Of a stretch of 64,000 bases of DNA, positions 1 to 46,988 are shown in pieces. The notes under the pieces are model-generated. The model was not told the DNA's origin. It saw only the letters and a list, made by a program, of their open reading frames with translations, and made no database searches. The DNA lies in the IMG/VR virus record IMGVR_UViG_3300042569_001383, positions 24,125 through 88,124 of that record. The stretch is one strand, 5' to 3'. How positions within the stretch are numbered: the stretch's first letter is position 1; each line of letters opens with the position of its first letter. The translations under genes were made by a program, and so were the position numbers. Source of the stretch: a virus. Lineage: Duplodnaviria > Heunggongvirae > Uroviricota > Caudoviricetes.

Positions 1-983
1 CAATTTCCTGTATATAAAACTGGTACATGTGGCAATGATAAATCTTCAGCAATCCAAATCGTATCGCTACATGGTTGGTATTCATTGTCTGCAGTTACAT
101 CAAATAATGCAAATTCTAAATCCGTTAAACCATAGTCATAGTTCTTTTGGATTCCTGCACCATAGATTTCACCATACACCACAAAGCCATTGCCAATTGC
201 ATCTTTGCCAAATCGTTTCACTAAACTCCACAATTTGGATTTGATATCATATTGTTCAGCAACCGTTCTCCATACGTCGGTTGAGTAGAATCCTTGTGAG
301 TCAGATCCTTTTTCAACATTGTGCGAACCATATACATATTCATATTCCAACCATTCCCAGCCTGGCAATGACAATAAAGGAACATTGCGTTGCAACCAAA
401 TACGCGTTTTATCAAACAAAGACAACGATGTTTTCTTTACGATTCCATAACGGGCATTGGTACCATGCAATTTACGGGTAATTTGCACTATATCCGTTTC
501 GCTAAACATTCCTTTAACATTTTTCAAGTTAGGGAATTTGTAGTATACATGGAAGTTAGAGTTTGCACGGTATCGAATTTTCTTGCCAGAAGACAATTGA
601 ACTTGTGTAACTGGAGGTTCGTATTTGTATACTCCTAAAATCTCCATCATGTCATCGCCGTCCTTAACATTGTTTGCCAATGACTTAGGTTCTAGGTACT
701 TGAATGGGATAAGTAAACATTCAGAATACACTCCTCGCAATTTAACGGTTCTAACTCGTTGTCCTTTACGAAGATAACTAGTCACTTGCATCAAGTCTGA
801 CAATGCATCAGGAATTACCGCATCTGTTGTAGCAACCACAACTTTGTCGCCTACGACATATTCGCCTTTCTTTGTGATAGCATTCCATCCTCCAACAACT
901 GCTAATTCAATGTTGTCAGCGCCATTAATGGCTTTTACTTCAGTTACGCTTCCTACGTAACATACACTGTTTTGATTTTCCAT
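1..983 (-). CDS. RNA ligase, Rnl2/Rnl5-like. C-terminus lies beyond the window edge. Absent from the ORF track because no stop codon falls inside the window.
   Basis: Manual minus-strand translation from the ATG at 981-983 stays open to position 3. Motif I KLHGTN (T4 Rnl2 has KIHGTN) sits about 170 residues in. The downstream segment VYGEIYGAGIQKNYDYG matches T4 Rnl2 VFGEFAGPGIQKNVDYG. An extra N-terminal domain of about 150 aa resembles the Rnl5-type architecture. Confidence 0.75.
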   Translation of the reverse strand, partial: MENQNSVCYVGSVTEVKAINGADNIELAVVGGWNAITKKGEYVVGDKVVVATTDAVIPDALSDLMQVTSYLRKGQRVRTVKLRGVYSECLLIPFKYLEPKSLANNVKDGDDMMEILGVYKYEPPVTQVQLSSGKKIRYRANSNFHVYYKFPNLKNVKGMFSETDIVQITRKLHGTNARYGIVKKTSLSLFDKTRIWLQRNVPLLSLPGWEWLEYEYVYGSHNVEKGSDSQGFYSTDVWRTVAEQYDIKSKLWSLVKRFGKDAIGNGFVVYGEIYGAGIQKNYDYGLTDLEFALFDVTADNEYQPCSDTIWIAEDLSLPHVPVLYTGN

Positions 984-998
984 TTCTTATTGTGTTAT

Positions 999-1736
999 TT
1001 ATTGTTCAAAAGTTGGTTTTAACCATAGTCCTCTACCGAATACCAAATCGAGAAATCCTGGTATATGATGCGTATCAACATCGTGTAACAATCTCAATGT
1101 TTCCGTAGTGTCATGTTTCATCATTTTGAAAATCTCTTCTCTAATTCTTTCTGCAGATACTGTGATTTTTAATTTTTCCAAGATATCTTGTTGTCTCATT
1201 GCTTTGAAAATATCTGGATGAATTTTAAATCCTTTGGTAATTGAAAATCTCAAAGCCCTAAGGATCCTTAATGGATCATCCATCATTGTAATTCTAGCAT
1301 CTAATGGAGTTCTTAACATTTTAGCATCTAAATCGTCTTTTCCGCCGAACAAGTCAATTAAATGTCCATCTTCGGATATTGCCATTGCGTTGAGAGTAAA
1401 GTCTCTTCTCATAAGATCATCCTCAATCGTTCCTAACTCCAATATTGGCTGTCTTGTTCCAGGTTTGTATCCAATTTCTTTTCTTGCAAGAACAAAGTCT
1501 GCAACAAGTCCTTCATTTGGATCTCCTTTTGGAAATTTGGCTCTAATTGTAAACATTTCTGGAGTAGATAGGAAGATTGTAAATTCTTTATGTTCCATGT
1601 ATTGTGTCATGATTTGGAATCCTTCTTCTACCGTTCTATCCAAATTGTCAAGTACAAACGTGAAATCAATATCTTTAGAATCAATTCCTAAGAATTGGTC
1701 TCTTACACAACCACCTACTTTGAATATCTTTGGCAT
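999..1736 (-). CDS. tRNA nucleotidyltransferase (CCA-adding enzyme), poly(A) polymerase head-domain family
   Basis: N-terminal GGCVRD motif (family consensus GGxVRD) and the RRDFTLNA motif typical of class II CCA enzymes. 245 aa, minimal head and neck. Confidence 0.7.
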   Translation of the reverse strand: MPKIFKVGGCVRDQFLGIDSKDIDFTFVLDNLDRTVEEGFQIMTQYMEHKEFTIFLSTPEMFTIRAKFPKGDPNEGLVADFVLARKEIGYKPGTRQPILELGTIEDDLMRRDFTLNAMAISEDGHLIDLFGGKDDLDAKMLRTPLDARITMMDDPLRILRALRFSITKGFKIHPDIFKAMRQQDILEKLKITVSAERIREEIFKMMKHDTTETLRLLHDVDTHHIPGFLDLVFGRGLWLKPTFEQ

Positions 1737-1798
1737 ACTTTTATTTTCTTATAATATAAGAAATTAAAGTTAAATTTCAAACCAAATACATGAATTTA

Positions 1799-2008
1799 TT
1801 AGCAACTTCCGTAACGGAATGACATAAATCCATTATTGTCGTCATCTGGAAAAAATCCTAATTTGTCAAGTCGTTCTATATCGTCTTCTGAAACTTCTCC
1901 TTCAATTCCACAAACATGAAGAACATCATGTTCGCAATAGGTTGGATATTTGTTAGCAGGATCCATGTACTTAGCTAATATTGTTAGCGCCTCAATTAAT
2001 TCATTCAT
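1799..2008 (-). CDS. hypothetical small protein
   Basis: 69 aa ORF with co-directional packing. No recognisable motif. Confidence 0.3.
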   Translation of the reverse strand: MNELIEALTILAKYMDPANKYPTYCEHDVLHVCGIEGEVSEDDIERLDKLGFFPDDDNNGFMSFRYGSC

Positions 2009-2018
2009 ATTTTTTGTT

Positions 2019-2426
2019 TTAAACTGTATGTTCTATTTGTACTCTTACACAATTTTGTGGCAATCGATTCAAATGCCTATAGTTATTAATGTAACCCATC
2101 ATGTTGCCACTTCCAACAGCATTTGCAGAATGCACTACAACTTCAACAACCGGTTTACCATCCAACCATTGATTGACTAACCATTTTGTGCAATCCATTC
2201 CAGTTTTCTCCGTAATGTTGTCGTAATTGATAGTGTAATTTTTAACGACGCCATAATGCCATTCGCGCATTGCAGAGTCACCTAAATCGTGATCCAATGA
2301 GATAAGCTCAATATTATCAAGTCCTATGCTATTGATTTTTTGCACGAACTCATCATAGTTTCGAACTACAACCCAATCTTTAGCAACTGGCGTTCTTACG
2401 TCGTCTAGGTATATTTTCTTTTTCAT
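2019..2426 (-). CDS. cyclic-phosphate processing receiver (cREC)-like domain protein
   Basis: N-terminal YLDDVR and SLDHDLG motifs recalled from the cREC family that accompanies polynucleotide kinases in RNA-repair loci. 4 bp overlap with the upstream kinase ORF. Confidence 0.45.
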   Translation of the reverse strand: MKKKIYLDDVRTPVAKDWVVVRNYDEFVQKINSIGLDNIELISLDHDLGDSAMREWHYGVVKNYTINYDNITEKTGMDCTKWLVNQWLDGKPVVEVVVHSANAVGSGNMMGYINNYRHLNRLPQNCVRVQIEHTV

Positions 2427-2809
2427 AATTTTATTTCAAAACGGTTACGCATTTGTTCTAATTTGTCTGTAGGTACATCGTGCACATTGACACCACCATG
2501 GCGATTTTCTACAATTAATGCCGTTACTCGATATCCATGAGTTTCAGCTAATTTGTAGTAGGCATCCATTTCCCATTCTTGAGTGAATGTGTTTGAGACT
2601 ACAATTCGTTCTTCATTTCGCATCATGGCTAAATAAACTAAATCTTGACACCAAGCGTGTGCTGATTTTAATTTTGAAACATGAAATACGTAGTTATTGT
2701 TTGAATCTAAGAAAAACATGTCGGCTTCATAGTGTTCTCCACCAAATAACTTAGCTACCGTTGATTTACCACTACCAGGTAAACCTCTTAATAAGATTAA
2801 TTCTTTCAT
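2423..2809 (-). CDS. polynucleotide 5'-kinase (P-loop), homolog of the T4 Pnkp kinase domain as a stand-alone protein
   Basis: Walker A LLRGLPGSGKST at the N-terminus. Architecture parallels the T4 Pnkp kinase domain (GCPGSGKST ... ISDTNL versus VSNTFT). Confidence 0.65.
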   Translation of the reverse strand: MKELILLRGLPGSGKSTVAKLFGGEHYEADMFFLDSNNNYVFHVSKLKSAHAWCQDLVYLAMMRNEERIVVSNTFTQEWEMDAYYKLAETHGYRVTALIVENRHGGVNVHDVPTDKLEQMRNRFEIKL

Positions 2810-2812
2810 AAC

Positions 2813-3262
2813 TTAAAAATTACCTGGAGCTACTTGGAAACAAGTTAAGCCGTTGTTTCTCCACATTTGTACTACTTTATCTCTGTCATCGAATACGCAG
2901 AATACTCTATCCGCGCCTAATTCATCTAACCATTGTTTCTTTAAAACGTCATCTGGTGTGAAGGATCCTTCAGGTCTCATCATCATTGCGTCTGGGTAAA
3001 TGCCGTGTTGAGCTAACCACTTTTCTGTTTCAACTCTACTGATTGAATCTCTTCCAGAGAAAATCACCATGTTGTATCCTTGCAATTGCAATGCACAGAA
3101 TGAAGCCATTACCGGTAGGTTTGGTTGGTCTAATGCAATGTTTTGTGGATCAAAGAATACTTTCCAATTGATTTTGCCGTCTGCTTTAGCAGCTAACGCT
3201 CTTCTTTCATCAATCAAAGCTAATGTACCATCCAAATCAAATATAACTGTGTCTTTTCTCAT
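2813..3262 (-). CDS. polynucleotide 3'-phosphatase (HAD/DxDGT family), homolog of the T4 Pnkp phosphatase domain as a stand-alone protein
   Basis: VIFDLDGTLA (T4 Pnkp VIFDVDGTLA), FSGRDS (T4 VSGRES), and the C-terminal DDRDKVVQMWRNNGLTCFQVAPGNF (T4 [25 protein letters not shown]). Confidence 0.8.
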   Translation of the reverse strand: MRKDTVIFDLDGTLALIDERRALAAKADGKINWKVFFDPQNIALDQPNLPVMASFCALQLQGYNMVIFSGRDSISRVETEKWLAQHGIYPDAMMMRPEGSFTPDDVLKKQWLDELGADRVFCVFDDRDKVVQMWRNNGLTCFQVAPGNF

Positions 3263-3274
3263 AACTTCGTTTTT

Positions 3275-3288
3275 TTATATTATATGAA
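3275..3288 (-). promoter_or_regulatory. motif A (gene-sense TTTCATATAATATAAAAAAA) upstream of the Pnkp-phosphatase gene
   Basis: Plus-strand tatattatatgaaa. One of seven or more near-identical copies 5-30 nt upstream of minus-strand start codons. Confidence 0.45.
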
Positions 3289-3289
3289 A

Positions 3290-3501
3290 TTAATCTAACG
3301 TTTCAAAGTCTACGTCTGGAATTGTTTCGCAAAAAAGAAAATGAGTTGGAGTTCTCAATACATGATCCGATCCAACCCAATCTCTAACTGCTTGTACATA
3401 ATCCATATTGGGGTGTTCGTTTTCTTCTTTGCAGAAATGTGATATCGTTTGCGTTCTTAAGATTTTATACGCAATCCCATTATGTATTTGTATTTGATTC
3501 A

Positions 3502-3502
<1 letters not shown>
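3290..3502 (-). CDS. hypothetical protein
   Basis: 70 aa ORF immediately downstream of GroEL. Confidence 0.3.
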
Positions 3503-5133
<1,631 letters not shown>

Positions 5134-5154
5134 TTATAACTTTTATATAAATAT
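5134..5154 (-). promoter_or_regulatory. motif B (plus-strand TTATAACTTTTATATAAATAT) upstream of groEL
   Basis: 21-mer identical to the element at 29841-29861. Contains a T4 late-promoter-like TATAAATA box. Confidence 0.45.
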
Positions 5155-5163
5155 AATATGTTT

Positions 5164-7362
5164 TTAAATTGCCTTTTCCAAGAACTTTCGATTAACTGTT
5201 TTGGATACATCGGTCATGTTCATTGGATTGATAAATTGTGCATCTGGTCCGTACATTGTTCTAAACTTATATGCCGTCGAGTGTGATGCGCCGCCTACAT
5301 GTATGAAATATGAAATAATATCAATTCCTAATTGTCGGTATGACGTAATAACTGATTTTGTAAATTGAACTCCATTATAACCATGTGCACATCCATTAAT
5401 AGAAGTTGGCTCGCCGTCTGAATAATTAATGAATATACATTCATCGCCTTTTGCGTCAATTCGTATATCAGATTCAATGCTTTTAAATGCTAATCCTTCT
5501 GGCGTGCATCCGAATATTTCTAGATATTTAAACAAGTTTCTAATTTTACTCATTTTATCGTGTGCGGAATCATATGCATATAACGTTATACATTTTTCTT
5601 TTAAATTTGAAAATTGTGCAGTTCCACGTAATGATATTTGTACACGTATGCCGGTTGTCATGGATGCTGCTTGTGCAATTGCTACTGCTGATGTGATTGC
5701 ATTTTGAAATTTTGTTCCACTCATTGATCCAGATGCATCAATTGAAATATGAATAAAATAATTTTTGAATCGATCTGTCACAATTTTATGAAATACATCA
5801 ACGTTATTGTATCCTAACTGCGCTACTAAACGTCTATCAATTTTACCAGATTGCAACCTAGTTGTTTTAAGAGTCTTATCTGAGTTTCTTACTTGCAATT
5901 TGCTTCCTAATTGTTTACCTAAAATAACACCTTGTGTAACTGCAGCTTCATTTTCTCGTATGCGTTTTGCATTACTCCAACCACCTGTTTTGTAGTTTTG
6001 ATATCCATTTATAAATGAAGCAGAGTCTCTAACAAACAATTCCGGAAGCGAACAAATAATAGGAGCTGTTAATTTTTTAATAACAATTGCATCTATAGGA
6101 TCACTTTTACCAGGACCAGTATATACCGTACGACTCTCGGTACCAGATTCTTTCAAAGCACGAACCATTGCGTTTTGAGTTTTCGATAACCTTCCATTTT
6201 TTGGTGTTTTACCTAATATGAAAGTGCGTTGCTTTTCAATTGCATTGTTTAGTTTATCGGCATCGCGTTGAGACATTGGCTCTGGTTCATCTTCTTCTTC
6301 TTCGTCTTCTTCGTCTTCTTCGTCTTCAACAGCTTCTAATTCTTCCTCAACATCAAATTCTTCGTCATCATTTACATTCGTTTCTTCCGTATCGTCACTT
6401 TCATCCCCGTCCGATGTATTTTGTGGTTGGGGAGACTCATTGGAATCTGATTCCATATCGTCTGCAGGATCCGATAGAACAAACTCGTTGTTATTATCAT
6501 CTTTATCAGATGGTTGCATTTGTTTAGTTTCATCGCTTTTCGGTTTCGATTTCGGTTTTTCTTCACGATTATTTGCCGTTGCTACTGCAAGTTTAATTAT
6601 CTTGAATAATTCACATGATAATAACAAAGCATCATTCGTTGAATGCAAACGATTAATATGTTTTAAATCAATCAATGTCCATATCGTTTCCAATTGTTTC
6701 AGCGTTTTAAGCTGACGATTTGGATTGGTAAAATTAATAATATGAAACATGTAATCATCCCAAGTTTCCTTGTTCTTTTGCTTGGTAGTTAATGCTTTAT
6801 CAATGATTTTGTCATTGAAGTATCGATTATACATGGCCTCATAATATACTCTGTATCCAGGTGCATTTGTGTATACATGATAATCGATTCTTCTATCTTC
6901 AATCCAATTCAATAAACCTTTAATATTATTAAGTTCCGAAGTAGTTAACAAATCACCGCATCCATGTTCTCTAGCAATATCAGCCATTTTCGTATCTTGA
7001 AGTGTCGACGTTGCATACCCATACGAAGTTTTAAACAAACTAAAATCGGTTAATGCAATATGCGAGCCTTCATGTAATGCTAAACCAACAGCTGGATCGA
7101 AATGTTTATCTTCTAGCTTTGTTCCGATAACAACGCGGTCACCATCGGTATAACTAGAATCATTGCTTTGAAACACAACAGGAATTTGCTTGCCGGTAAC
7201 AATTGTAACGAAATTACCAATTGCTCTTTGTGCTGCAGCCAATTTTGTTAAATCTAATTCAGATCCATTCTTAAAATTGGTATCAAAATCATACCAAAAG
7301 CTAGATGCAGATTTACTGGAAAACTTTGTAACTGATATTGGTTTACTATTTTGATTTGCCAT
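5164..7362 (-). CDS. CobT-like von Willebrand factor A domain protein with a long acidic low-complexity insert
   Basis: vWA MIDAS motif ISIDASGSMSG. Extended D/E-rich tracts (EEDEEDEEEEDEPEP). Lies directly downstream of an AAA+ MoxR/CobS-like ATPase, as in phage cobS/cobT pairs. Confidence 0.6.
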   Translation of the reverse strand: MANQNSKPISVTKFSSKSASSFWYDFDTNFKNGSELDLTKLAAAQRAIGNFVTIVTGKQIPVVFQSNDSSYTDGDRVVIGTKLEDKHFDPAVGLALHEGSHIALTDFSLFKTSYGYATSTLQDTKMADIAREHGCGDLLTTSELNNIKGLLNWIEDRRIDYHVYTNAPGYRVYYEAMYNRYFNDKIIDKALTTKQKNKETWDDYMFHIINFTNPNRQLKTLKQLETIWTLIDLKHINRLHSTNDALLLSCELFKIIKLAVATANNREEKPKSKPKSDETKQMQPSDKDDNNNEFVLSDPADDMESDSNESPQPQNTSDGDESDDTEETNVNDDEEFDVEEELEAVEDEEDEEDEEEEDEPEPMSQRDADKLNNAIEKQRTFILGKTPKNGRLSKTQNAMVRALKESGTESRTVYTGPGKSDPIDAIVIKKLTAPIICSLPELFVRDSASFINGYQNYKTGGWSNAKRIRENEAAVTQGVILGKQLGSKLQVRNSDKTLKTTRLQSGKIDRRLVAQLGYNNVDVFHKIVTDRFKNYFIHISIDASGSMSGTKFQNAITSAVAIAQAASMTTGIRVQISLRGTAQFSNLKEKCITLYAYDSAHDKMSKIRNLFKYLEIFGCTPEGLAFKSIESDIRIDAKGDECIFINYSDGEPTSINGCAHGYNGVQFTKSVITSYRQLGIDIISYFIHVGGASHSTAYKFRTMYGPDAQFINPMNMTDVSKTVNRKFLEKAI
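6290..6345 (-). repeat. short in-frame GAA/GAC-type simple repeat encoding the poly-acidic tract of the CobT-like protein
   Basis: Plus-strand ttcttcttcttcgtcttcttcgtcttcttcgtcttc. Confidence 0.5.
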
Positions 7363-7374
7363 GATTATATTTTA

Positions 7375-7389
7375 TTATATTATATGAAA
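7375..7389 (-). promoter_or_regulatory. motif A upstream of the CobT-like gene
   Basis: Plus-strand tatattatatgaaaa. Confidence 0.45.
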
Positions 7390-7426
7390 ATATTTATACG
7401 ATTCCAAGCAAAGTGCCATTTCCTAT

Positions 7427-8590
7427 TCAAAAAGGCATATCTTCGACGTTGGGCTCATTTGTATTGAAAATATCTTTTATTTCAGTGGCAACATGTTTCT
7501 GAATAATCTGTTTCACATAGGTTCTTTCGGAGTCAGCACCACCAGATGCATCAAAGAAAGGCAATACGGAAACTTCCATTGATTCTGACAAGGTAAAATC
7601 ATCTGCCAATAACTCACATACTCGAACTGTCATACGAGTTGATATCATTGTACTCAACTTGCCTTCTTCAGATTTCCATTCTTTTCTGGTTGCATCTGCA
7701 ATGTCAGCTACCGCATGAATCAATTCCGGTGAAACTCGGTCTTTATACCGTTTTGTTAACAATGATTCTTCTTGAGACAAAGAAAGGATATCAACTTCAA
7801 TGATTTCAAAACGATCCATTAATGCACGGTCCAATACGCGAGTCGATGTATACTCAGTACCGATATTTGCAGTGGCAATGAATGAGACACCGGATGCTAC
7901 ACGAATAGTTGGAGAATTAACATCTTCATCCAATCTCAAATAGCGTTGACCTTCATCTAAAACAGTCATCAATATGTTCCATGCTTCCGGATGCGCTCTG
8001 GATAACTCATCTAACAATATCACAGCAGAATCCGTTTGAATTGCTCTTACGAATGCCGATTCGTCAAATGTAGTTTCGCCGTCTTGGAAATGCGTGTTAC
8101 CAATAAGAGTTGCCCTAGGATCTTGCGTAGCTCCTAAGTTGAAATAAAAGAATGGACGATCCGTTGCTACCGGCAATGCTTTTGCGGCTTGAGTCTTACC
8201 ACAACCTGCAGGGCCAACCATCATGATGTTTTTTCCGCGGACTGCTGAACGAACTAGATACTTCCATTTAATGTCAGACATTTCTAAGTCATTTGGCTTA
8301 ATCTTGTATGAATTCTTAATCAATTCCAAAACAGGATCCATTTCTCTTTCCTCTTGCACTTGCAATACGGGTTGTTTATATTGTATTTGACGACCTGTAT
8401 CGTCTGTTGCTGGTACTCGACGTGCTCGACCCGTTGTATGGTCAAATACCAAATTTTGATTGTTGGTGTATGCCGCATTTATCATAACTGGCCTAAATAA
8501 CTCAGAAATGTCTGCTCCTGTGTTAACATCAATTACGGTTAAATAACCTGGCGTTGAATCATCAATTCTTCCTGTTTGTATCGTATTCAT
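7427..8590 (-). CDS. CobS-like AAA+ ATPase (MoxR family)
   Basis: Walker A MMVGPAGCGKTQAAKA, Walker B ILLDE, 387 aa. Paired with the vWA protein. Confidence 0.7.
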   Translation of the reverse strand: MNTIQTGRIDDSTPGYLTVIDVNTGADISELFRPVMINAAYTNNQNLVFDHTTGRARRVPATDDTGRQIQYKQPVLQVQEEREMDPVLELIKNSYKIKPNDLEMSDIKWKYLVRSAVRGKNIMMVGPAGCGKTQAAKALPVATDRPFFYFNLGATQDPRATLIGNTHFQDGETTFDESAFVRAIQTDSAVILLDELSRAHPEAWNILMTVLDEGQRYLRLDEDVNSPTIRVASGVSFIATANIGTEYTSTRVLDRALMDRFEIIEVDILSLSQEESLLTKRYKDRVSPELIHAVADIADATRKEWKSEEGKLSTMISTRMTVRVCELLADDFTLSESMEVSVLPFFDASGGADSERTYVKQIIQKHVATEIKDIFNTNEPNVEDMPF

Positions 8591-8601
8591 ATATCTTTTT
8601 T

Positions 8602-8617
8602 TATATTATATGAAAAA
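8602..8617 (-). promoter_or_regulatory. motif A upstream of the CobS-like gene
   Basis: Plus-strand tatattatatgaaaaa. Confidence 0.45.
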
Positions 8618-8634
8618 TATATACAAATTCAAAG

Positions 8635-9903
8635 TTATCTTATGATTTTTTTTGCCGTTCCATCGTCATATACTTCAAGCAATAGCCCCGATTCGGTTGG
8701 CATAGCTTCTTTCCCCAGCAAGTTTAGTACTCGCACTACATGGCGTATTTTGTTGGTGTTATCAATTAATATTGGACCGTATACTTTGTAATTTCCATCC
8801 ACATCATGTTGAACCAATTGATAGTAATTTAAACTGGCATTTGGTGCCGATTCGGTTACATGATATATGTTTTTTGTGTTTGAATTTGTAGCTGACGGAT
8901 GCGTGGCAATTGTGTTCCATGTTTCGCCATTTTGACTAACTTGTACTTCGAAATGCGAACTATTCCATTCTGATGCAGTTGCCCAATCGAATGCATTGTA
9001 TGAATCATGTGCATATCCTTCAAAATACATTAATTCTACCGGTAATGCCAAAATTTGATTGATTGTTGCTTGATATCCGTTCCATGTTCCAATATTGGAT
9101 ACATCGCTAGTAAATCGAATAGTTATTGCACTATTTGATTGAGTTGTTACATAGGATAAATTAGTAGCAGTTCCCGTTAATGTTGCTAATAATGGAGCCG
9201 ATGTGTTGAAGCCATCATATACATATAAATAATCATAATCAGTTTCAATGTTTAAACTAGAAATATTTAATTCTAATTTTTTAGTTGGATCTGTTGGTGT
9301 AAATGTTATGGTTTGTGATAAGTTATTTCCATATGTTTCAGCATAACTACCTTGATCTATAATTGTTATGGATTCATTAACTGTTTGTGAACAATTGCCT
9401 AGCATCGGAAGCAATGTGTTTTGCACGGTGTTTGTTGAAGTCCAAGACATATCATCAATATATCGTTCTTGTGCACCCGATGCACGAGTATCTCTGACTC
9501 TAACATATACGTTGCTTAATGCAGATAAGTTAATTGTATATTGTTGATATGTAGCAGTAATGCTTGTTATGGTACCTCGACTCGTCCATGTAGTTCCGTT
9601 AGGCGAAGTTTCAATAACACAGCTCCACGCCGTTGTGTTTGTACTACGACGATACCAAAATGAAAAAACACCTGGAGATGCAATTATTGGAGTTCGAATC
9701 CAATCGCCTGATCCATTAAAACCTATAGCACGTCCACCAGTTCGAGTAGGCGTTGTTACCGTGATCACGGAGTTTATTGTCCAGGTTCCTCCTTGGGTTG
9801 TTACTGTTGTAGTTCCGAAGCTTTCGTATACTTGATATCGACTGCATTGTGTATGTACCAATGTACTAAATAATATTGCAATGATTGCAATGTACCATTT
9901 CAT
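8635..9903 (-). CDS. secreted Thr/Ser-rich protein with a T9SS (Por) C-terminal sorting domain
   Basis: N-terminal signal peptide MKWYIAIIAILFSTLVHTQ. C-terminal ~70 aa (VRVLNLLGKEAMPTESGLLLEVYDDGTAKKIIR) fits the type A T9SS CTD pattern. Confidence 0.55.
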   Translation of the reverse strand: MKWYIAIIAILFSTLVHTQCSRYQVYESFGTTTVTTQGGTWTINSVITVTTPTRTGGRAIGFNGSGDWIRTPIIASPGVFSFWYRRSTNTTAWSCVIETSPNGTTWTSRGTITSITATYQQYTINLSALSNVYVRVRDTRASGAQERYIDDMSWTSTNTVQNTLLPMLGNCSQTVNESITIIDQGSYAETYGNNLSQTITFTPTDPTKKLELNISSLNIETDYDYLYVYDGFNTSAPLLATLTGTATNLSYVTTQSNSAITIRFTSDVSNIGTWNGYQATINQILALPVELMYFEGYAHDSYNAFDWATASEWNSSHFEVQVSQNGETWNTIATHPSATNSNTKNIYHVTESAPNASLNYYQLVQHDVDGNYKVYGPILIDNTNKIRHVVRVLNLLGKEAMPTESGLLLEVYDDGTAKKIIR

Positions 9904-10016
9904 TGTAAGTCCTTATTTTTATGTTTGTTTTTGCGATTGTATGTTTTTTTGCTTTTTTGCACGATGGGTCTAGTTGCTGCCCAAATTTCTTGCATGGTAA
10001 CTTCTATCTTCTTCAT
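9900..10016 (-). CDS. possible small basic protein (38 aa), below the ORF-track cutoff
   Basis: ATG at 10014-10016 preceded by promoter-like motif A at 10021-10036. Stop overlaps the next start as ATGA at 9900-9903. Translation MKKIEVTMQEIWAATRPIVQKSKKTYNRKNKHKNKDLQ. Confidence 0.2.
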   Translation of the reverse strand: MKKIEVTMQEIWAATRPIVQKSKKTYNRKNKHKNKDLQ

Positions 10017-10052
10017 ACTTATAAATATATGAAATAGTTTTGTAATTTCCAA

Positions 10053-10520
10053 TCACCATTTGCGACAAGACCAATATCGAGCTGTTGTTCTATCCTTTGC
10101 AGTCTGACACCGATGACGGGCTCTAAATGAACGTCGACGTGCTGGATTATTTTTGCGTATACGCATTGTTTTTTGACCAGCTTTTTTTGCTGAAGTGCCA
10201 CCATGACCGAAATTAACTTTAACTACATTGCCTTTGTCATTTTTAACATACACTTTGAATTTTTTCACATCACCACGAGTTGGTTTTCCTAGTTGAACTT
10301 TGCGACCTTGGTATTCCGCTTCATTAAGACCCGGTACCATTATTTCAATCATCTCTGGCTTATCTGTGGCATACGCTTCTTTAATGTATTCAATCAGACA
10401 TTGTTCACAATAGCCTTCAGCTTCTTTGATTGGAACGCAGTTAGGTACTTGTTTTCCGCCTTTATCTTTCATTCCATATTGTTGGTAATCTTTCCAACAA
10501 GCTTCGTCGATGTAATGCAT
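10053..10520 (-). CDS. hypothetical protein with a basic C-terminus
   Basis: 155 aa, Arg-rich tail. Confidence 0.35.
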   Translation of the reverse strand: MHYIDEACWKDYQQYGMKDKGGKQVPNCVPIKEAEGYCEQCLIEYIKEAYATDKPEMIEIMVPGLNEAEYQGRKVQLGKPTRGDVKKFKVYVKNDKGNVVKVNFGHGGTSAKKAGQKTMRIRKNNPARRRSFRARHRCQTAKDRTTARYWSCRKW

Positions 10521-11269
10521 TATAATTCCTGTCGTATACTTAATTTAGGGAGATATGTTCTCCACGTTGTTAATATGGTTTCTTTGTCTGCTGGTTTCAA
10601 TGCGCCGTTGTCAACCCATAAGTCCAAATAGTCGTTTACGATGCCTTTAAAAGGTTGTTTGCTTTTTTTGGCTTTTGTATATAACCCATGAATCATTGCC
10701 GGGATTTCTTTTGGAAGTAAAAAATAATGAACTGGTGCTTTTTGTCCGATTTCAATCTTTTTACGAAGTGCCTGATCTGATGCAATGTATTTTCCGGACT
10801 TCAAGTTCCAACCGCTTTGTGTGATATGTTCTATTTCATGGCGTAATACATCGCGTAAATGCGTTGCAATCTCGCTTAAAATAGTAGGGTAGTCAGCTGG
10901 ATCTATTGTGAATCTAACTTCAATTAATGGCGGGCTTTCTGCGTTTTGTTTGGTTTCATTGTAAGCATCGCCACCGTATTTAAAATCAGCCAATCCTTGT
11001 ACCCACATAACTTTGAGTTCTAAGTAGAATTCTAAAGGAATTTGTGAATTTTCAACTTCCTGGAAATATACATGTTTGAACTGGGCATCATCATTGATAT
11101 CAGGAGTATTTTCATCGGCTTTAAAATATATTTTCTGGCCGGAGAATTTGCCATCTGGGTCTGTTACGGCTGAGTAACTATCTTTAACTACTGTTAATAA
11201 TTGTCTAGACAATGCAGTTACTAAACTGTCATAACGACCTTCAATGATTAAAGATTTAAGTGATACCAT
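10520..11269 (-). CDS. hypothetical protein
   Basis: 249 aa ORF, co-directional, no motif recognised. Confidence 0.4.
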   Translation of the reverse strand: MVSLKSLIIEGRYDSLVTALSRQLLTVVKDSYSAVTDPDGKFSGQKIYFKADENTPDINDDAQFKHVYFQEVENSQIPLEFYLELKVMWVQGLADFKYGGDAYNETKQNAESPPLIEVRFTIDPADYPTILSEIATHLRDVLRHEIEHITQSGWNLKSGKYIASDQALRKKIEIGQKAPVHYFLLPKEIPAMIHGLYTKAKKSKQPFKGIVNDYLDLWVDNGALKPADKETILTTWRTYLPKLSIRQEL

Positions 11270-11280
11270 ATTAATAAATA

Positions 11281-11838
11281 TTATTCAAGTAAATTATAGT
11301 TCCAATACGTATCTTTATTTTCGTTGTATGGATTGCCTGTTTGTTGATAGTAACAATTGAGACATAGCATTTGTAAATTTTCAATGCGATGATTTGTTAC
11401 GTCTCCATCAATATGGTCCAATCTCAAAGGAACGGTGTCGTCGGTTACTCTTCTTTCTGAATAACCGCAACACGTACATTCTTCTGGCATAATTGCCAAT
11501 GCCAATAATCTATTGCGGAGTTTCCATGATGGATATTGTGGAAATTTTCCTTCAAGTATCCCGTCAATTGAATATATTCCTTTTCTTGCACTTGCAATGT
11601 TTTTAGGTATTCCAACTCCGAATTGATTTTTATGCAACTCATACAACGTTTTTCCACTATCTCGGTCCGTATACAATCTAGCATATTTTTTATATGTAGT
11701 AAACGATACTTTTAAAAATCGAGCAGCTTCGGCATTTGATTTGGTATTTTCCATGGCATATCGGATTTCGCTTTCAGGAATATCCAATGCAGTTTTACCT
11801 AATCCGTAAATGTATTTATATGGTTGCTTTTCTTCCAT
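11281..11838 (-). CDS. HNH homing endonuclease, free-standing
   Basis: HNH core LDHIDGDVTNHRIENLQMLCLNCY with flanking Cys pairs (CTCCG ... CLNC). Occupies an intergenic slot between unrelated genes. Confidence 0.75.
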   Translation of the reverse strand: MEEKQPYKYIYGLGKTALDIPESEIRYAMENTKSNAEAARFLKVSFTTYKKYARLYTDRDSGKTLYELHKNQFGVGIPKNIASARKGIYSIDGILEGKFPQYPSWKLRNRLLALAIMPEECTCCGYSERRVTDDTVPLRLDHIDGDVTNHRIENLQMLCLNCYYQQTGNPYNENKDTYWNYNLLE

Positions 11839-12224
11839 TAATATACTCCATGTTTTCTCAATTCATTTACTGCATCTTTTACTGCAGTTTTGTTGTCATA
11901 CATTTCGGATAGCAATGATTTTAATTTAACCGCACAATCATTGAAAAATGTTGGATGAACTTTGCTTTGTTTTTGTACATCAGCAATCCAATACGAGTAA
12001 GCTGGATATGTTTCATTGAATTGGTCACTAGATGTTCTGTTTGCCCAAAATTCAATTTGATCCTTGAGTGGCCACATATGAAGTGGAACTGATGCATCTT
12101 TACGAATTGCTGACTCAAATGGTTTATTGGCATTTCTTTTTGCATTTCTGCTAATAAACTTGTCCATGATGTTGATGGAACGATCTTTAGGCGACATGCC
12201 CGTGTGTGCTGACTTTTTACCCAT
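11838..12224 (-). CDS. hypothetical protein
   Basis: 128 aa ORF. Confidence 0.4.
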   Translation of the reverse strand: MGKKSAHTGMSPKDRSINIMDKFISRNAKRNANKPFESAIRKDASVPLHMWPLKDQIEFWANRTSSDQFNETYPAYSYWIADVQKQSKVHPTFFNDCAVKLKSLLSEMYDNKTAVKDAVNELRKHGVY

Positions 12225-12707: not shown

Positions 12708-12872
12708 ACTTCAAGGCTTCAGACAAAAAATTCAATTTTCGTTCTTGGTTCCATGAATTGGGCCATTCCCAATCATTGCCGGCCATTGCATTTATCGATT
12801 CGATGAATAATTGATTAATAAAATTTTCCATTGCCATAACATATTATATAAAAAAATAAAACTAGTTCAAAG

Positions 12873-23571: not shown

Positions 23572-24164
23572 GGTTTAAATCTATTATAGTTATTTAATAT
23601 TGATTGATTATAATCTCGATGTCCATTTTGCAAATCAGAATATGATGGTAATTGATATGCAATCATCGGATCGCACATATATACGTTATGATTAGACATT
23701 AAGTTGTAATAATGCACATCTATTTCGCACGTTTTTGGTAAATTTAGTATGGTATCATAAAATCGTTCATGAACGAAATATGCATGTGCAGCGTACGCGC
23801 CATTTAATTTTAATAAAGTATCTGAAATGCGAGTGGCGCGTGTTTGTAAATTCGCTCCTAAAAAAAACATATCCCATTCGAATGTTTGTACTTCCGTAAA
23901 TGCATTGTTTAATATGTCAACAACATTATCGGTAAATATGGCATCATCTTCTAATATTAAAACGTATGGAAGTTCATTTTCTTTCGCTAATCGTATACAT
24001 TTAAGATGTGATTCGAAACATCCCATTGCTGGATTAAAATGTTGAATAGCATCGACGATTTGGGCTTGCGATAATTCTAATTTAGTTATTTCATTGATAA
24101 TGTGATAATATCGATCTTTACGATGTTTTAAATTTATAACATATGTTGGTATTTTTATTTTCAT
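23568..24164 (-). CDS. glycosyltransferase family 25-like (LPS/LOS beta-glycosyltransferase type)
   Basis: N-terminal YVINLKHRKDRYYHI pattern as in GT25 (INL..R..R). Confidence 0.5.
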   Translation of the reverse strand: MKIKIPTYVINLKHRKDRYYHIINEITKLELSQAQIVDAIQHFNPAMGCFESHLKCIRLAKENELPYVLILEDDAIFTDNVVDILNNAFTEVQTFEWDMFFLGANLQTRATRISDTLLKLNGAYAAHAYFVHERFYDTILNLPKTCEIDVHYYNLMSNHNVYMCDPMIAYQLPSYSDLQNGHRDYNQSILNNYNRFKP

Positions 24165-24934
24165 TTTTTAACGATAAGTAACCAATTTGGGTTGGCATGA
24201 GTTTTAGGATACTCAGGTAACACTTCGACTGAACTAAAATATTTAGTCATTTCATTAATTAAAAATTCTTTTCGATCATCCCATATATTCATTAAAAAAT
24301 ATCCGTATTGGCAATGTTTAATTATAGTTTCAATATAAAAACTAATACCAGCCCTATCAAATTCGCTTAAGCACCAATTTGAGATAACTAAATCATATGA
24401 TTTTAGTGGAATTTCCGTTGTTTTAAAAAAGTTAATATTAGAATAGTTAAATAAATCTAAATACGTATTGCATAATGATAAAGTTTCTTTAACATCAACA
24501 CAACTATATGTATTAATACCATAATCTAAAACAATTTTTGCTTGTCCTCCGTAACCCGAACCAATTTCTACAATATCAAATTTTGAAATATCTCCGAAAT
24601 TATGTTTTAAACTTTGTACTATATTCATGAAGTATAAAGTACCGGGCGATATATCTCCTATTTTCGGATACGAATATATATTAGGAGACCCATATATATC
24701 ATTTGTTTTAAATTTATCAATGTGCCGCAATATATCAGTATCGTCTTTAACATTATCATATAAAACATCTGATACATGTTTTCCTAATACGTCATTACCA
24801 ATAACGCATCGAAAAATATGATTTTGTTTAAATGTATCAAACGCCGTTTGATTATTAACAATGTGTTCACATTCTTGCAAGAATGTATTTCCTATTTCAT
24901 TTTGAAATATCCAGTTTCCGTCAAATTGTACCAT
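24161..24934 (-). CDS. class I SAM-dependent methyltransferase
   Basis: IVEIGSGYGGQA Rossmann GxGxG motif followed by an acidic residue at the expected spacing. Confidence 0.5.
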   Translation of the reverse strand: MVQFDGNWIFQNEIGNTFLQECEHIVNNQTAFDTFKQNHIFRCVIGNDVLGKHVSDVLYDNVKDDTDILRHIDKFKTNDIYGSPNIYSYPKIGDISPGTLYFMNIVQSLKHNFGDISKFDIVEIGSGYGGQAKIVLDYGINTYSCVDVKETLSLCNTYLDLFNYSNINFFKTTEIPLKSYDLVISNWCLSEFDRAGISFYIETIIKHCQYGYFLMNIWDDRKEFLINEMTKYFSSVEVLPEYPKTHANPNWLLIVKK

Positions 24935-24935
24935 G

Positions 24936-25580
24936 TTATATTAAATTTTCTTTTTTGAATACTTGTTCCCATCCGTTTTCTTTCTTAAATCCTGACCGCA
25001 TGAAATTGAAATATATACGTTCAGATACTGCATTTAATAAAATAGTTGGATTCAAATTTGAAGTAAATGTATTGCCAACTAATTCAAAATCCCATGGGCT
25101 GTATTCTGGTTTCATTACTGTTTTAAGAAATTCCGTTTTCCATATTGCTGGTTGTACGGAATTCTGGTATAAACTATCGTTGTCTAATTTATACAATGAA
25201 TCTTTGATATGTGTTAGTTTATATTCAACCCAATCCGTAACAATTTCGAACATGATTTTATCAGCTGAATATTGATTCATGATATCGATATGAGTTTTAA
25301 TAAAATCGGCACCGATATTAGTAGTCATATAATAATCATCTAAAATAAAACAAACGTATTCCGTTTTAATTTGATTTAAACCAGCTAATATGCGTTGTCC
25401 CCAAGTTAATCCTAAACCTGGCAGTATGTTATTATACTCCCCAGGCATTGGTATCGTTTCTCCAACTACTATAACTTCACAATCTATATTCCAATATCGT
25501 TTAAATAAAATATCAAAATTTTTCCAAATTGGATTATATGCATCACACGTTCCAATTAATATAGTTAACGTATCTTTCAT
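24936..25580 (-). CDS. hypothetical protein in the glycan island (possible GT-A)
   Basis: 214 aa. FILDDYYM has possible DxD character. Confidence 0.3.
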   Translation of the reverse strand: MKDTLTILIGTCDAYNPIWKNFDILFKRYWNIDCEVIVVGETIPMPGEYNNILPGLGLTWGQRILAGLNQIKTEYVCFILDDYYMTTNIGADFIKTHIDIMNQYSADKIMFEIVTDWVEYKLTHIKDSLYKLDNDSLYQNSVQPAIWKTEFLKTVMKPEYSPWDFELVGNTFTSNLNPTILLNAVSERIYFNFMRSGFKKENGWEQVFKKENLI

Positions 25581-26437
25581 ATTAAATTTTTAATTTCATT
25601 TATAGTAAAATGTTCTACTTCGTTTGAATATGGGCCTTCTTCTAATACCTTTTCGTGCATATTTTCTCCAGGCTGCAATCCAATAACTTTAATAGAAATA
25701 GATTGACCGTTTCCGTATTTAAGAATCATTGCTTGTAACAAATCATCTATACGCATAGATTTCATGATAGGACAATATGGTTTTGAGTCGGTTGAATGTT
25801 TCATACAATCAATTATTAATTGAATCGCCTCATCTACTGACCAGAAGAATCTAGTCGCACTTGGTTCAGTAACGATAACTTCTTTTCCTTGTTCGATTAA
25901 ATCTTTCCATTTGCAAAGAACCGAGCCTGTTGAATATAAAACATTTCCATATCTTACGGTACGATACATTACATTAGGATTCAATTCTTCATATTGTTTA
26001 ATTGCACGCTCCATTAAGAATTTAGTAGCACCGTATACTCCGGCAACTTGTGCTGCTTTATCCGTTGAAACCGATAATATGAATTTCAACGTTGGATGAT
26101 TTATAGATTGTTCTAGAATATTTATTGACCCAATGACATTGGTTTTGATATTCTCTCTAACGAATTTTTCTGCTAAGCCTACATGTTTTGATGCAGCTAA
26201 ATGAAAAACACCAGTTACATTTTGCATTGCTTGTCGTACTTCGAACTCATCTGATATATCTCCGGTGTATATGTCGACTTTCGGATACGTTTCTTTAAGT
26301 GTGATTAATTTGCCTTCATCTCTGCTAATAACTCGTACATTTCCGCCTTGTTTTAATATATAACCAACTAACGGATATCCTAAGAATCCAGAACCACCTG
26401 TAATTAGATACAATTTATCTTTTTCAATTGTTATCAT
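25577..26437 (-). CDS. NAD-dependent sugar epimerase/dehydratase (SDR family, CapD/PseB-like)
   Basis: LITGGSGFLG Rossmann motif at the N-terminus. YxxxK region present. 286 aa. Confidence 0.75.
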   Translation of the reverse strand: MITIEKDKLYLITGGSGFLGYPLVGYILKQGGNVRVISRDEGKLITLKETYPKVDIYTGDISDEFEVRQAMQNVTGVFHLAASKHVGLAEKFVRENIKTNVIGSINILEQSINHPTLKFILSVSTDKAAQVAGVYGATKFLMERAIKQYEELNPNVMYRTVRYGNVLYSTGSVLCKWKDLIEQGKEVIVTEPSATRFFWSVDEAIQLIIDCMKHSTDSKPYCPIMKSMRIDDLLQAMILKYGNGQSISIKVIGLQPGENMHEKVLEEGPYSNEVEHFTINEIKNLI

Positions 26438-31433: not shown

Positions 31434-31436
31434 ACT

Positions 31437-31452
31437 ATATTATATGAAATTA
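31437..31452 (-). promoter_or_regulatory. motif A upstream of the Cas4-like nuclease gene
   Basis: Plus-strand tatattatatgaaatt. Confidence 0.4.
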
Positions 31453-32643: not shown

Positions 32644-32657
32644 TTAATTTATTTTTT

Positions 32658-32673
32658 TATATTATATGAAATT
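32658..32673 (-). promoter_or_regulatory. motif A upstream of the small membrane protein/SPFH operon
   Basis: Plus-strand tatattatatgaaatt. Confidence 0.45.
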
Positions 32674-32956
32674 ATTTTGTAGATTCCAACCGTTCTATCT
32701 CTTTTAATGCACGTTGCATATAAAGAATGTCATCTAATTTTTCTTCAATGCTATGTTGTAGCCATTCTTTGAGAGACAGATCCGTGCGATCCAAGTCGAC
32801 GCCGTACTTTGCTTTGCCAATTTGAGCTCGCATTACGAATCGGTCAATAATTGAATCAACGATACTATCTGTTTTTGGTATTATTCGTTCGGTTTCAAAT
32901 TGGTCAAATTGGTGCATCGGAAAACCTGTTTGTGGGTCAATTGGTATATATGTCAT
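32672..32956 (-). CDS. hypothetical protein
   Basis: 94 aa ORF. Confidence 0.3.
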   Translation of the reverse strand: MTYIPIDPQTGFPMHQFDQFETERIIPKTDSIVDSIIDRFVMRAQIGKAKYGVDLDRTDLSLKEWLQHSIEEKLDDILYMQRALKEIERLESTK

Positions 32957-44365: not shown

Positions 44366-44374
44366 ATGTTTTTA

Positions 44375-44390
44375 TTTATTATATGAAATT
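44375..44390 (-). promoter_or_regulatory. motif A variant upstream of 43955-44365 (head of the queD-queE segment)
   Basis: Plus-strand tttattatatgaaatt. Confidence 0.4.
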
Positions 44391-44392
44391 AA

Positions 44393-46937: not shown

Positions 46938-46988
46938 AACTTGTTTCTTATTTATATTATAAGATAATTTATTTAAAATTCAAAGTTT

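Follow-up and report, generated by a model that had tools for sequence, protein, structure and literature searches.

Why would a phage keep together, on one strand and within 3.4 kb, genes of the kinds that heal broken RNA ends, seal them, and add nucleotides to the 3′ ends of tRNAs? The question is raised by the beginning of a 64,000-nucleotide (nt) stretch of viral DNA (Caudoviricetes; IMG/VR virus record IMGVR_UViG_3300042569_001383, positions 24,125 to 88,124), which we call the window and whose numbering we use throughout. The genes encode a HAD phosphatase, a small P-loop kinase, a protein of the cREC family, a nucleotidyltransferase of the CCA-adding type, and an RNA ligase. Our answer is that the phage has here an island of functions for healing RNA ends, sealing them and extending the 3′ ends of tRNAs, probably expressed from two phage promoters, and we give this reading a probability of roughly 0.72. 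The gene anatomy, the family memberships, the conservation of catalytic residues and the recurrent linkage are established; the activities, the substrates and the trigger are what we infer.

Gene anatomy of the locus

An earlier interpretation of this DNA, made from its letters without database searches (the sequence-only reading), described five adjacent minus-strand genes. A listing of the open reading frames (ORFs) and their translation place all five on the minus strand exactly where that reading had put them, but the block holds six ORFs, since a small one, orf69, had been missed. From upstream to downstream on the minus strand, with lengths in amino acids (aa), they are:

2813-3262, minus strand: putative HAD 3′-phosphatase, 149 aa
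2423-2809, minus strand: P-loop kinase, 128 aa
2019-2426, minus strand: cREC protein, 135 aa
1799-2008, minus strand: orf69, 69 aa, between the cREC and CCA-type genes
999-1736, minus strand: CCA-type nucleotidyltransferase gene, 245 aa
1-983, minus strand: Rnl5-architecture ligase, ATG at 983, codons 1-327 of 385 inside the window

The cassette is one co-directional 3.4-kb block. Only 3 nt separate the HAD gene from the kinase gene, 10 nt the cREC gene from orf69, and 15 nt the CCA-type gene from the ligase gene, while the kinase stop and the cREC start overlap by 4 nt (ATGA), which suggests co-translation. The sole sizeable gap is the 62 nt between orf69 and the CCA-type gene. The ligase gene runs 175 nt past the start of the window, and its full-length product of 385 aa was read from two contigs, L001 and L002. 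Together with a third, L003, these contigs show 0 mismatches to the window across the shared 1,221-1,736 nt, counted from the CCA-type gene start. As for orf69, it is predicted as a gene on independent contigs too; it has no significant match in Pfam, PHROG or NCBIfam, and among the first 169 loci the only one with a homologue is a contig identical to the window over their overlap.

Profile searches uphold the five domain identities that the sequence-only reading had assigned (RNA_ligase, HAD_PNKP, AAA_33, PolyA_pol and cREC profiles). For the company that these genes keep elsewhere, we used two sets of 80 IMG/VR viral loci, one centred on the kinase and one on the CCA-type gene, and counted partners within 6 kb.

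The end-healing enzymes

The HAD protein matches Pfam HAD_PNKP at 1.9e-30 (106 bits, with a cut-off of 27.6), and its closest matches in the PDB are Capnocytophaga Pnkp1 (4xrp, 8.2e-17) and T4 Pnkp (1ltq, 7.7e-11). It is 33% identical to residues 162-301 of T4 Pnkp (BLASTP), and its D9, D11, S69, K108 and D126 align with T4 D165, D167, S211, K258 and D278, which in T4 Pnkp serve as nucleophile, acid-base catalyst, phosphate contacts and Mg ligand (PMC3592404). The likeness to the C-terminal domain of T4 Pnkp that had been noticed by eye therefore extends to five matched catalytic residues. Given that the T4 Pnkp phosphatase clears 2′,3′-cyclic, 3′- and 2′-phosphates (PMC3592404), the standalone PNKP-type HAD is predicted to remove these same three kinds of phosphate from RNA.

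The kinase is a separate ORF 3′ of the phosphatase gene, as had been described, so that the order phosphatase then kinase is the reverse of that in the T4 fusion. Its profile matches are to AAA_33 (Pfam, 1.4e-12) and to phrog_2071, annotated "ATPase" (3.6e-41), with a weak match to the polynucleotide kinase family phrog_505, and T4 Pnk is nearest to its structural model. We take the catalytic residues of T4 Pnk to be Lys15, Ser16, Asp35, Arg38 and Arg126. The K15 and S16 of our kinase stand at the same position as T4 Lys15 and Ser16, an invariant D30 follows strand 2 like T4 Asp35, and an invariant R103/H104 pair in the lid region falls some 2-3 residues from T4 Arg126 in a weak alignment. The family as a whole is strongly conserved, among others in the motifs HYEAD, VVSNTFTQEWEM and ENRHGG. 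We predict that this 128-aa minimal P-loop kinase is a polynucleotide 5′-OH kinase.

Can the two genes be regarded as a T4 Pnkp that has been split, as the sequence-only reading proposed? We find that they cannot. The kinase is one of a large family of standalone proteins that are about 128 aa long, with more than 8000 clusters scored; the best 120 homologues listed are 126-149 aa long and carry P-loop kinase or NTPase Pfam domains only, with no HAD, and a HAD neighbour occurs in just 4 of the 80 kinase-centred loci. A standalone family that is seldom found beside a HAD gene argues for independent modules and not for a recent gene fission. A recent fission of a T4-type pseT gene was also tried directly and rejected, as hhalign of the kinase family against T4 Pnkp covers the P-loop only. 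The 128-aa protein would be a very abundant standalone RNA-repair kinase, one that is usually annotated merely as "ATPase" or "predicted kinase".

The end-sealing enzyme

The ligase starts with an N-terminal OB domain (PHA02142, PF21189, 5.3e-14, residues 10-93) and matches RNA_ligase at 1.4e-13 (Pfam). Both features singled out in the sequence-only reading, an Rnl5-like N-terminal extension and the motif KLHGTN, are indeed found, the latter being the KIHGTN of T4 Rnl2 except for an L in place of an I. In the PDB it comes closest to the exemplar of Rnl5, NgrRnl of Naegleria, with ligase residues 11-127 aligned to NgrRnl 11-129 (phmmer, 5.9e-16). A profile built from 14 members of the ligase family matches NgrRnl (5cot) end to end (residues 5-337 of 340) at 1.4e-62, and the same profile matches T4 Rnl2 at 2.4e-5. 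A C-terminal appendage is absent, with just 19 residues following K366, the lysine of motif V.

In those 14 sequences, the motif residues K171/G174, S220/N222, G271/E272, F294/D295, E350/G351/V353 and K366 are invariant or nearly so, and K171, E272, E350 and K366 are invariant. What the window itself holds is motifs I (K171-L-H-G-T-N), Ia, III and IIIa; the gene is cut at the window edge, and motifs IV (E350-G-x-V) and V (K366) lie outside and were seen only in contigs with an identical overlap, here read from L001. The full-length ligase has all of the nucleotidyltransferase motifs I, III, IV and V, none of which is missing.

Against TIGR02306, the DraRnl equivalog model, the ligase scores 114 bits (E 6.8e-33) over its full length, below the 151-bit cut-off. 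An Rnl5 architecture together with a score below this cut-off indicates a divergent subclade and not the equivalog. Judged by sequence, then, the ligase is a member of a divergent Rnl5-architecture subclade with some Rnl2-like active-site signatures, which comes close to what the sequence-only reading had supposed. Placement in the Rnl2 class was considered and rejected, because T4 Rnl2 matches motif III/IIIa only, TIGR02307 gives 22 bits, and the domain order is that of Rnl5. Rnl5 ligases seal 3′-OH/5′-PO4 nicks in duplexes whose 3′-OH strand is RNA (PMC4408790).

The cREC protein

Between the kinase and orf69 lies a protein of the cREC family, named for a cyclic-phosphate-processing receiver-like domain, that matches PF20274 (cREC_REC) at 4.8e-22 (78.9 bits, with a cut-off of 27). 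Its fold is that of a CheY-like receiver, in which strands 1 and 3 are each followed by conserved acidic residues, and the LDD and DHD motifs are kept even in copies of 32-37% identity. The cREC proteins "remain experimentally uncharacterized", and the processing of cyclic phosphates is a prediction for them (PMC9503650).

The cREC protein is also better conserved than its neighbours in the same loci, being 78-80% identical to the window copy where the CCA-type enzyme is 64-71% and the kinase and ligase are 60-66% identical. In the database, over 120 clusters reach an identity of 79% or more. For a second cREC lineage the identity drops to about 52%, and the conservation effect is modest.

The CCA-type enzyme and tRNA genes

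The fifth enzyme matches PolyA_pol (5.6e-20) and PolyA_pol_RNAbd (1.9e-6) in Pfam, and phrog_24229 at 7.3e-59. Motifs A-E are conserved in 6 sequences, as GGCVRD...DID (8-24), RRD (110-112), DDPLRILRALRF (153-164) and SAERIREE (194-201). The protein ends about 45 residues past motif E, and it aligns to residues 38-258 of the 502-aa cca1 (9ns2). All ten NCBIfam models for CCA-adding, A-adding and PcnB enzymes stay below their cut-offs, the best at 107.5 bits against 290. The enzyme falls within a broad family in which short proteins are the rule: about 200 cluster representatives score at E ≤ 1e-30, nearly all of 225-265 aa, as are most of the nearest 150, and the family is called tRNA nucleotidyltransferase in 500 cultured-phage records. 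Our literature search found no biochemical study of a CCA-type form of about 245 aa with head and neck only. As far as the sequence goes, CC-adding, A-adding, CCA-adding and poly(A) specificities are indistinguishable.

What might such an enzyme be for? The sequence-only reading suggested that it could rebuild 3′ CCA ends clipped by toxins that act on the acceptor end of tRNAs. We find the case for this to be weaker than it was stated, as the enzyme is without body and tail domains and its relatives adjoin arrays of tRNA genes that mostly have no encoded CCA. These arrays are often directly upstream of the short CCA-type gene. Among 192 distinct tRNA genes of related loci (L007-L169), the encoded CCA is missing in 170, and such genes typically end with the discriminator and a C, followed by an A-rich trailer. 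The CCA-less arrays make tRNA maturation at least as likely as the repair of toxin-damaged ends. That the short family would serve to finish phage tRNAs is well-supported by these arrays, and such a purpose competes with the rebuilding of toxin-clipped ends and is compatible with it as well. In the window itself, a search for Rfam families in positions 1-12000 at E up to 0.1 gave no match.

A tRNA-like element of 75-100 nt was also observed in the relatives, outside the window, as 15 copies in 12 related loci (for example L098:5191-5283, L095:1182-1279, L102:3603-3696 and L057:1591-1684). From copy to copy the acceptor stem (AGTCAGG/CCTGACT) is identical and the D and T arms are conserved, but the 30-55 nt in the middle are hypervariable. 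The anticodons that ARAGORN assigns to them are inconsistent or have 2 and 4 nt, and the Rfam tRNA model gives just 32-44 bits. They sit in tRNA arrays adjoining CCA-type and ligase genes, and may represent tRNAs with an insert or else a cofactor RNA.

Gene neighbourhoods in related phages

In the kinase-centred set (n=80), 47 loci have a ligase within 6 kb (28 with Rnl1, 24 with Rnl5, 5 with both), 13 have cREC, 4 a CCA-type gene, 4 a HAD gene, and 22 tRNA genes. In the CCA-centred set (n=80), the corresponding numbers are 34 for an Rnl1- or Rnl5-type ligase, 24 for the kinase, 14 for cREC, 2 for HAD, and 23 for tRNA genes. Partner genes always share the strand of the central gene in the 160 loci. 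The sequence-only reading saw the locus as a linked RNA healing and sealing set, and the presence of a same-strand ligase in 47 of 80 kinase loci agrees with this.

The order of the genes differs between loci, and next to one and the same kinase Rnl1 can stand in for Rnl5 or the reverse. Modular shuffling of this kind has been described for RNA-repair systems, and it argues that our Rnl5-type ligase serves the same pathway as the tRNA-repair-type Rnl1. As an example of how the order can return, an independent phage (L008) whose kinase is 70% identical has HAD, kinase, CCA-type gene and Rnl5 in the same order, without cREC. In E. coli Vequintavirus, the kinase family (45% identity) is found with a phosphoesterase, Rnl1, Sir2 and MazG, a type of neighbourhood that has been interpreted as RNA repair (PMC9503650).

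None of the 160 related loci has all five genes together. HAD_PNKP is present in 6 of them and cREC in 27, and the two are never within 6 kb of each other, an absence that is suggestive only, as about 1 co-occurrence would be expected by chance. That the full set is missing from 160 loci and that HAD and cREC never meet in them makes the combination in the window an unusually complete one.

Promoter-like motifs and transcription units

The sequence-only reading put the whole set under one promoter, a 14-mer at 3275-3288. The 14-mer, TTCATATAATATAA, is real, and has four exact copies on the minus strand; what is not supported is the single promoter, as a second full bipartite motif precedes the CCA-type gene. 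The 14-mer is the downstream half of a bipartite pattern, TTTGAA-N13-TTCATATAATATAA, which may alternatively be read as TTGAAA-N16-TATAAT. In the window there are 8 sites of this pattern with at most 3 mismatches, where 0.13 would be expected, and one additional site with a degenerate upstream half. All are on the minus strand:

1749-1781, minus strand: promoter-like motif P2, TTTGAA-N13-TTCTTATATTATAA, differs from the pattern at 2 of its 20 specified positions
3275-3307, minus strand: promoter-like motif P1, full 33-nt pattern exact, ends 12 nt before the HAD start codon
7375-7407, minus strand: motif site
8601-8633, minus strand: motif site
12839-12871, minus strand: motif site
31435-31448, minus strand: motif site
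32657-32689, minus strand: motif site
44374-44406, minus strand: motif site
46952-46984, minus strand: motif site

Every site ends 0-14 nt before a start codon, so that the mRNAs would be leaderless or nearly so. The upstream half of P1 falls within the 3′ end of a 70-aa ORF (3290-3502), and P2 sits in the 62-nt gap between orf69 and the CCA-type gene, ending 12 nt before the start of the latter. In a sigma-70-type scan, P1 scores 11/12 and P2 10/12. The bipartite motif is closer to the sigma-70 consensus than to the -33/-7 type, which we take to be that of Bacteroidota.

With P2 before the CCA-type gene, two transcription units appear more likely than one, HAD-kinase-cREC-orf69 in the first and the CCA-type gene, the ligase and the downstream ORFs in the second. 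A terminator scan gave no site in positions 1-8000 of the window, so read-through from upstream (GroEL and the 70-aa ORF) could contribute too.

A proposed pathway

How would these enzymes work together? The pathway would begin when a metal-independent ribonuclease of the host or of a competitor cuts a tRNA or another structured RNA. The HAD phosphatase would turn the cyclic or mono-phosphate end into a 3′-OH by way of an aspartyl-phosphate intermediate, as T4 Pnkp does, and cREC may assist it or handle a related end. The 128-aa P-loop kinase would phosphorylate the 5′-OH. The Rnl5-type ligase would then adenylylate its K171 and seal the 3′-OH/5′-PO4 break, which a duplex-like fold would present to it as a nick. 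The CCA-type enzyme would add missing 3′-terminal nucleotides to tRNAs, either those of the phage whose genes encode no CCA, or those of the host after damage, or both. The trigger could be an anticodon nuclease or some other defence that cleaves tRNA, and to name PrrC or RloC as the target is pure conjecture.

Weighing the alternatives

Several observations count against the island as we read it. The related loci come from related phages, so that the linkage counts are not independent events. The sequence similarity of the kinase to T4 Pnk is confined to a 22-residue P-loop segment, and no clear equivalents of T4 Arg38 and Arg126 could be mapped in it. The CCA-type enzyme has head and neck domains but is without the body and tail, which in class II CCA-adding enzymes are the domains that bind the tRNA elbow. 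The cREC protein is not obviously needed and looks redundant beside a PNKP-type HAD. No tRNA or tmRNA gene was found in the 64-kb window, and no candidate host nuclease has been identified, none having been searched for. For the sealing of anticodon loops, T4 relies on an Rnl1-type ligase. The ligase here falls below the DraRnl cut-off, and the physiological substrates of Rnl5 ligases are unknown (PMC4408790, PMC5397189).

Is the island instead there for tRNA housekeeping? In that case the CCA-type enzyme would mainly finish CCA-less phage tRNAs, and the healing and sealing enzymes would process or maintain phage tRNAs or tRNA-like RNAs. We regard this as a real if minority possibility, and one that overlaps with the repair island that we favour, from which it differs in purpose only. 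It draws on the relatives, where tRNA genes lie within 6 kb in 23 of 80 CCA-centred loci and often directly upstream, where most tRNA genes are without an encoded CCA (170 of 192), and where insert-bearing tRNA-like elements adjoin ligase and CCA genes; tRNA-rich cultured phages, too, routinely carry the short gene annotated as tRNA nucleotidyltransferase. Yet no tRNA gene lies within 6 kb in 57 of the 80 CCA-centred loci, and none was found in our window or in the 3-4 kb past the ligase in L001 and L002. Moreover, ordinary tRNA maturation has no need of a kinase, a phosphatase and a ligase, and a CCA-adding enzyme is normally supplied by the host. A reading in which the substrate is not tRNA at all, but a DNA or RNA-DNA hybrid break such as an RNA-patched nick made during replication or repair of the phage genome, seems to us improbable. 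T4 Pnkp is active on DNA ends too, and a thymidylate-synthase gene lies 3′ of our ligase. Nicks with an RNA 3′-OH strand are sealed by DraRnl and NgrRnl whether the template is RNA or DNA, and Deinococcus becomes more sensitive to radiation when DraRnl is lost (PMC5397189, PMC4408790). What speaks for tRNA is that the CCA-type gene is just 15 nt upstream of the ligase, that next to the same kinase Rnl5 and the tRNA-repair-type Rnl1 can take each other's place, and that tRNA arrays adjoin these genes in relatives.

The role of cREC allows for two further readings. It may stand outside RNA repair, degrading immune signals of the cyclic ADP-ribose or cyclic-nucleotide type and having been placed here by the clustering of counter-defence genes. 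The authors who defined cREC proposed processing of cyclic ADP-ribose or 2′,3′-cyclic nucleotides and noted frequent Nudix fusions (PMC7824862, PMC9503650), and cREC matches in cultured jumbo phages are annotated as nudix hydrolase; a PNKP-type HAD should clear cyclic phosphate ends alone (PMC3592404), and HAD and cREC are never within 6 kb of each other in the 160 loci. We nevertheless consider it rather unlikely, as the ATGA overlap with the kinase suggests co-translation, 27 of 160 loci have cREC within 6 kb of a kinase, ligase or CCA gene, and no NAD- or ADP-ribose-processing gene was found among the flanking ORFs that we scanned. Alternatively, there may be two lesions and a division of labour of a kind not described before. 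In the 160 loci cREC and HAD never co-occur, yet here they flank the kinase. Each might deal with a blocked end of its own, for example cREC with a cyclic or modified phosphate on a tRNA 3′ end, which it could open or remove, and HAD with the monoester, which it could clear. The CCA-type enzyme, by analogy with RlaP, might be a ligase-associated polymerase that restores nucleotides missing from the break or from the CCA end ahead of sealing. This version is unlikely in our view, and if true it would provide the first physiological Rnl5 substrate and the first cREC activity.

Could the adjacency mean nothing, the genes being unrelated accessory neighbours? Plausible genes over 64 kb are all on one strand with short gaps, which makes adjacency alone weak evidence, and the full five-enzyme set is found only in contigs that are identical or nearly so to the window. 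Still, the same families recur together in many orders and with replacement of one ligase type by another, they recur in distant phages of Proteobacteria, and their enzymes make up a chemically complete pathway, all of which leaves this explanation very little room.

Source phage and surroundings

The phage is uncultured, and its relatives exist at the protein level only. Positions 1-8000 of the window have no DNA match by megablast in 50,697 phage records. The closest cultured relative of the cREC protein is in Flavobacterium phage immuto_3-5A (Immutovirus), and from this 76% identity the host is probably Flavobacterium-like. A gene with a CHU_C domain 3′ of the ligase also indicates a host in the Bacteroidota.

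Every plausible gene of at least 100 aa across the window is on the minus strand, and the GC skew is negative nearly throughout. The GC content falls to 0.29 at 24001-26000, against 0.33-0.37 elsewhere. Upstream of the cassette lies a GroEL gene (3502-5118, 538 aa), whose product is 58-60% identical to bacterial and Bacteroides-phage chaperonins; the start of the 70-aa ORF that follows it (3290-3502) overlaps the GroEL stop, and this ORF has no significant family match in Pfam, PHROG or NCBIfam. Farther upstream, a MoxR-like AAA_5 ATPase (7427-8590) adjoins a 732-aa protein (5164-7362) with a weak match to CobT/vWA and an extended acidic region of low complexity, and the two look like a MoxR-vWA pair. 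At 8635-9903 there is a CUB / F5_F8-type-C domain protein.

Beyond the start of the window, as read from L001 (2105-4234) and a 17-kb contig, 6-7 small ORFs of 46-152 aa without family match lie 3′ of the ligase. Next come a long gene resembling thymidylate synthase (391 aa), one for an acetyltransferase, and others for proteins with PKD and CHU_C domains.

Comparison with known systems

One close parallel is the T4 tRNA-repair system of PseT (Pnkp) and RnlA (Rnl1), which counters the anticodon nuclease PrrC. There as here, a 5′-kinase, a DxDxT HAD 3′-phosphatase and an ATP-dependent RNA ligase are encoded close together, T4 pseT and rnlA being about 1.4 kb apart. In T4, however, kinase and phosphatase are fused with the kinase N-terminal, whereas here they are separate genes with the phosphatase first; the ligase is of Rnl5 type here and Rnl1 in T4, and cREC and the CCA-type enzyme are extra. 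A cellular counterpart from the Bacteroidota is the Pnkp1-Rnl-Hen1 system of Capnocytophaga gingivalis (4xrp; PMC4411300), which also combines kinase, phosphatase and ligase, and whose Pnkp1 HAD is the closest solved relative of ours. Its Pnkp1 is fused, and it comes with a Hen1 methyltransferase, which is absent here.

With NgrRnl and DraRnl the ligase shares an N-terminal OB domain followed by the nucleotidyltransferase domain, the lack of a C-terminal appendage, and TIGR02306 as its best NCBIfam model. It differs from NgrRnl in motif I, which is KLHGTN here and KLDG there (PMC4408790). The window family also has an insertion of 26-39 residues after motif I and a conserved C-terminal VGDSH tail, and its identity to classic-type members is just 27-29%. 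The CCA-type enzyme shares its head motifs with class II CCA enzymes (GGxVRD...DxD, RRD, DDPLRxLRAxRF, ER...E) and shows 43-48% identity to proteins that are annotated in cultured phages as tRNA nucleotidyltransferase (phrog_24229, with such short forms in Cellulophaga phage phi4:1 and Microbacterium phages); it has 245 aa where the characterised class II enzymes have about 390-500.

Phage neighbourhoods of cREC, nucleotide kinase and RNA ligase, such as that of Escherichia phage V5, were described by Iyer, Burroughs, Anantharaman and Aravind (Viruses 2021, PMC7824862; 2022, PMC9503650), and the jumbo-phage repertoire for RNA repair includes CCA-adding enzymes and PNK-HAD phosphatases (PMC7824862). 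Phage RNA-repair repertoires of ATP-grasp ligases, polynucleotide kinases, PNK-HAD, cREC and CCA-adding enzymes are thus already described (PMC7824862, PMC9503650), and with the concept of an RNA-repair island published, the locus extends the known picture and does not change it. Relative to the V5-type neighbourhoods, it has a PNKP-type HAD instead of a calcineurin-like phosphoesterase and Rnl5 instead of Rnl1, it has no sirtuin or MazG gene, and all its parts stand in one co-directional block. Three of its five families, Rnl5, cREC and the short CCA-type form, are without an established role or activity, and their place beside two well-understood end-healing enzymes makes the cassette a convenient set for reconstitution in vitro, useful in that respect if unsurprising to a specialist. 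What sets it apart from the systems above is a compact and complete set, a PNKP-type HAD together with cREC, an Rnl5 architecture with an Rnl2-like motif I, and a minimal CCA-type enzyme.

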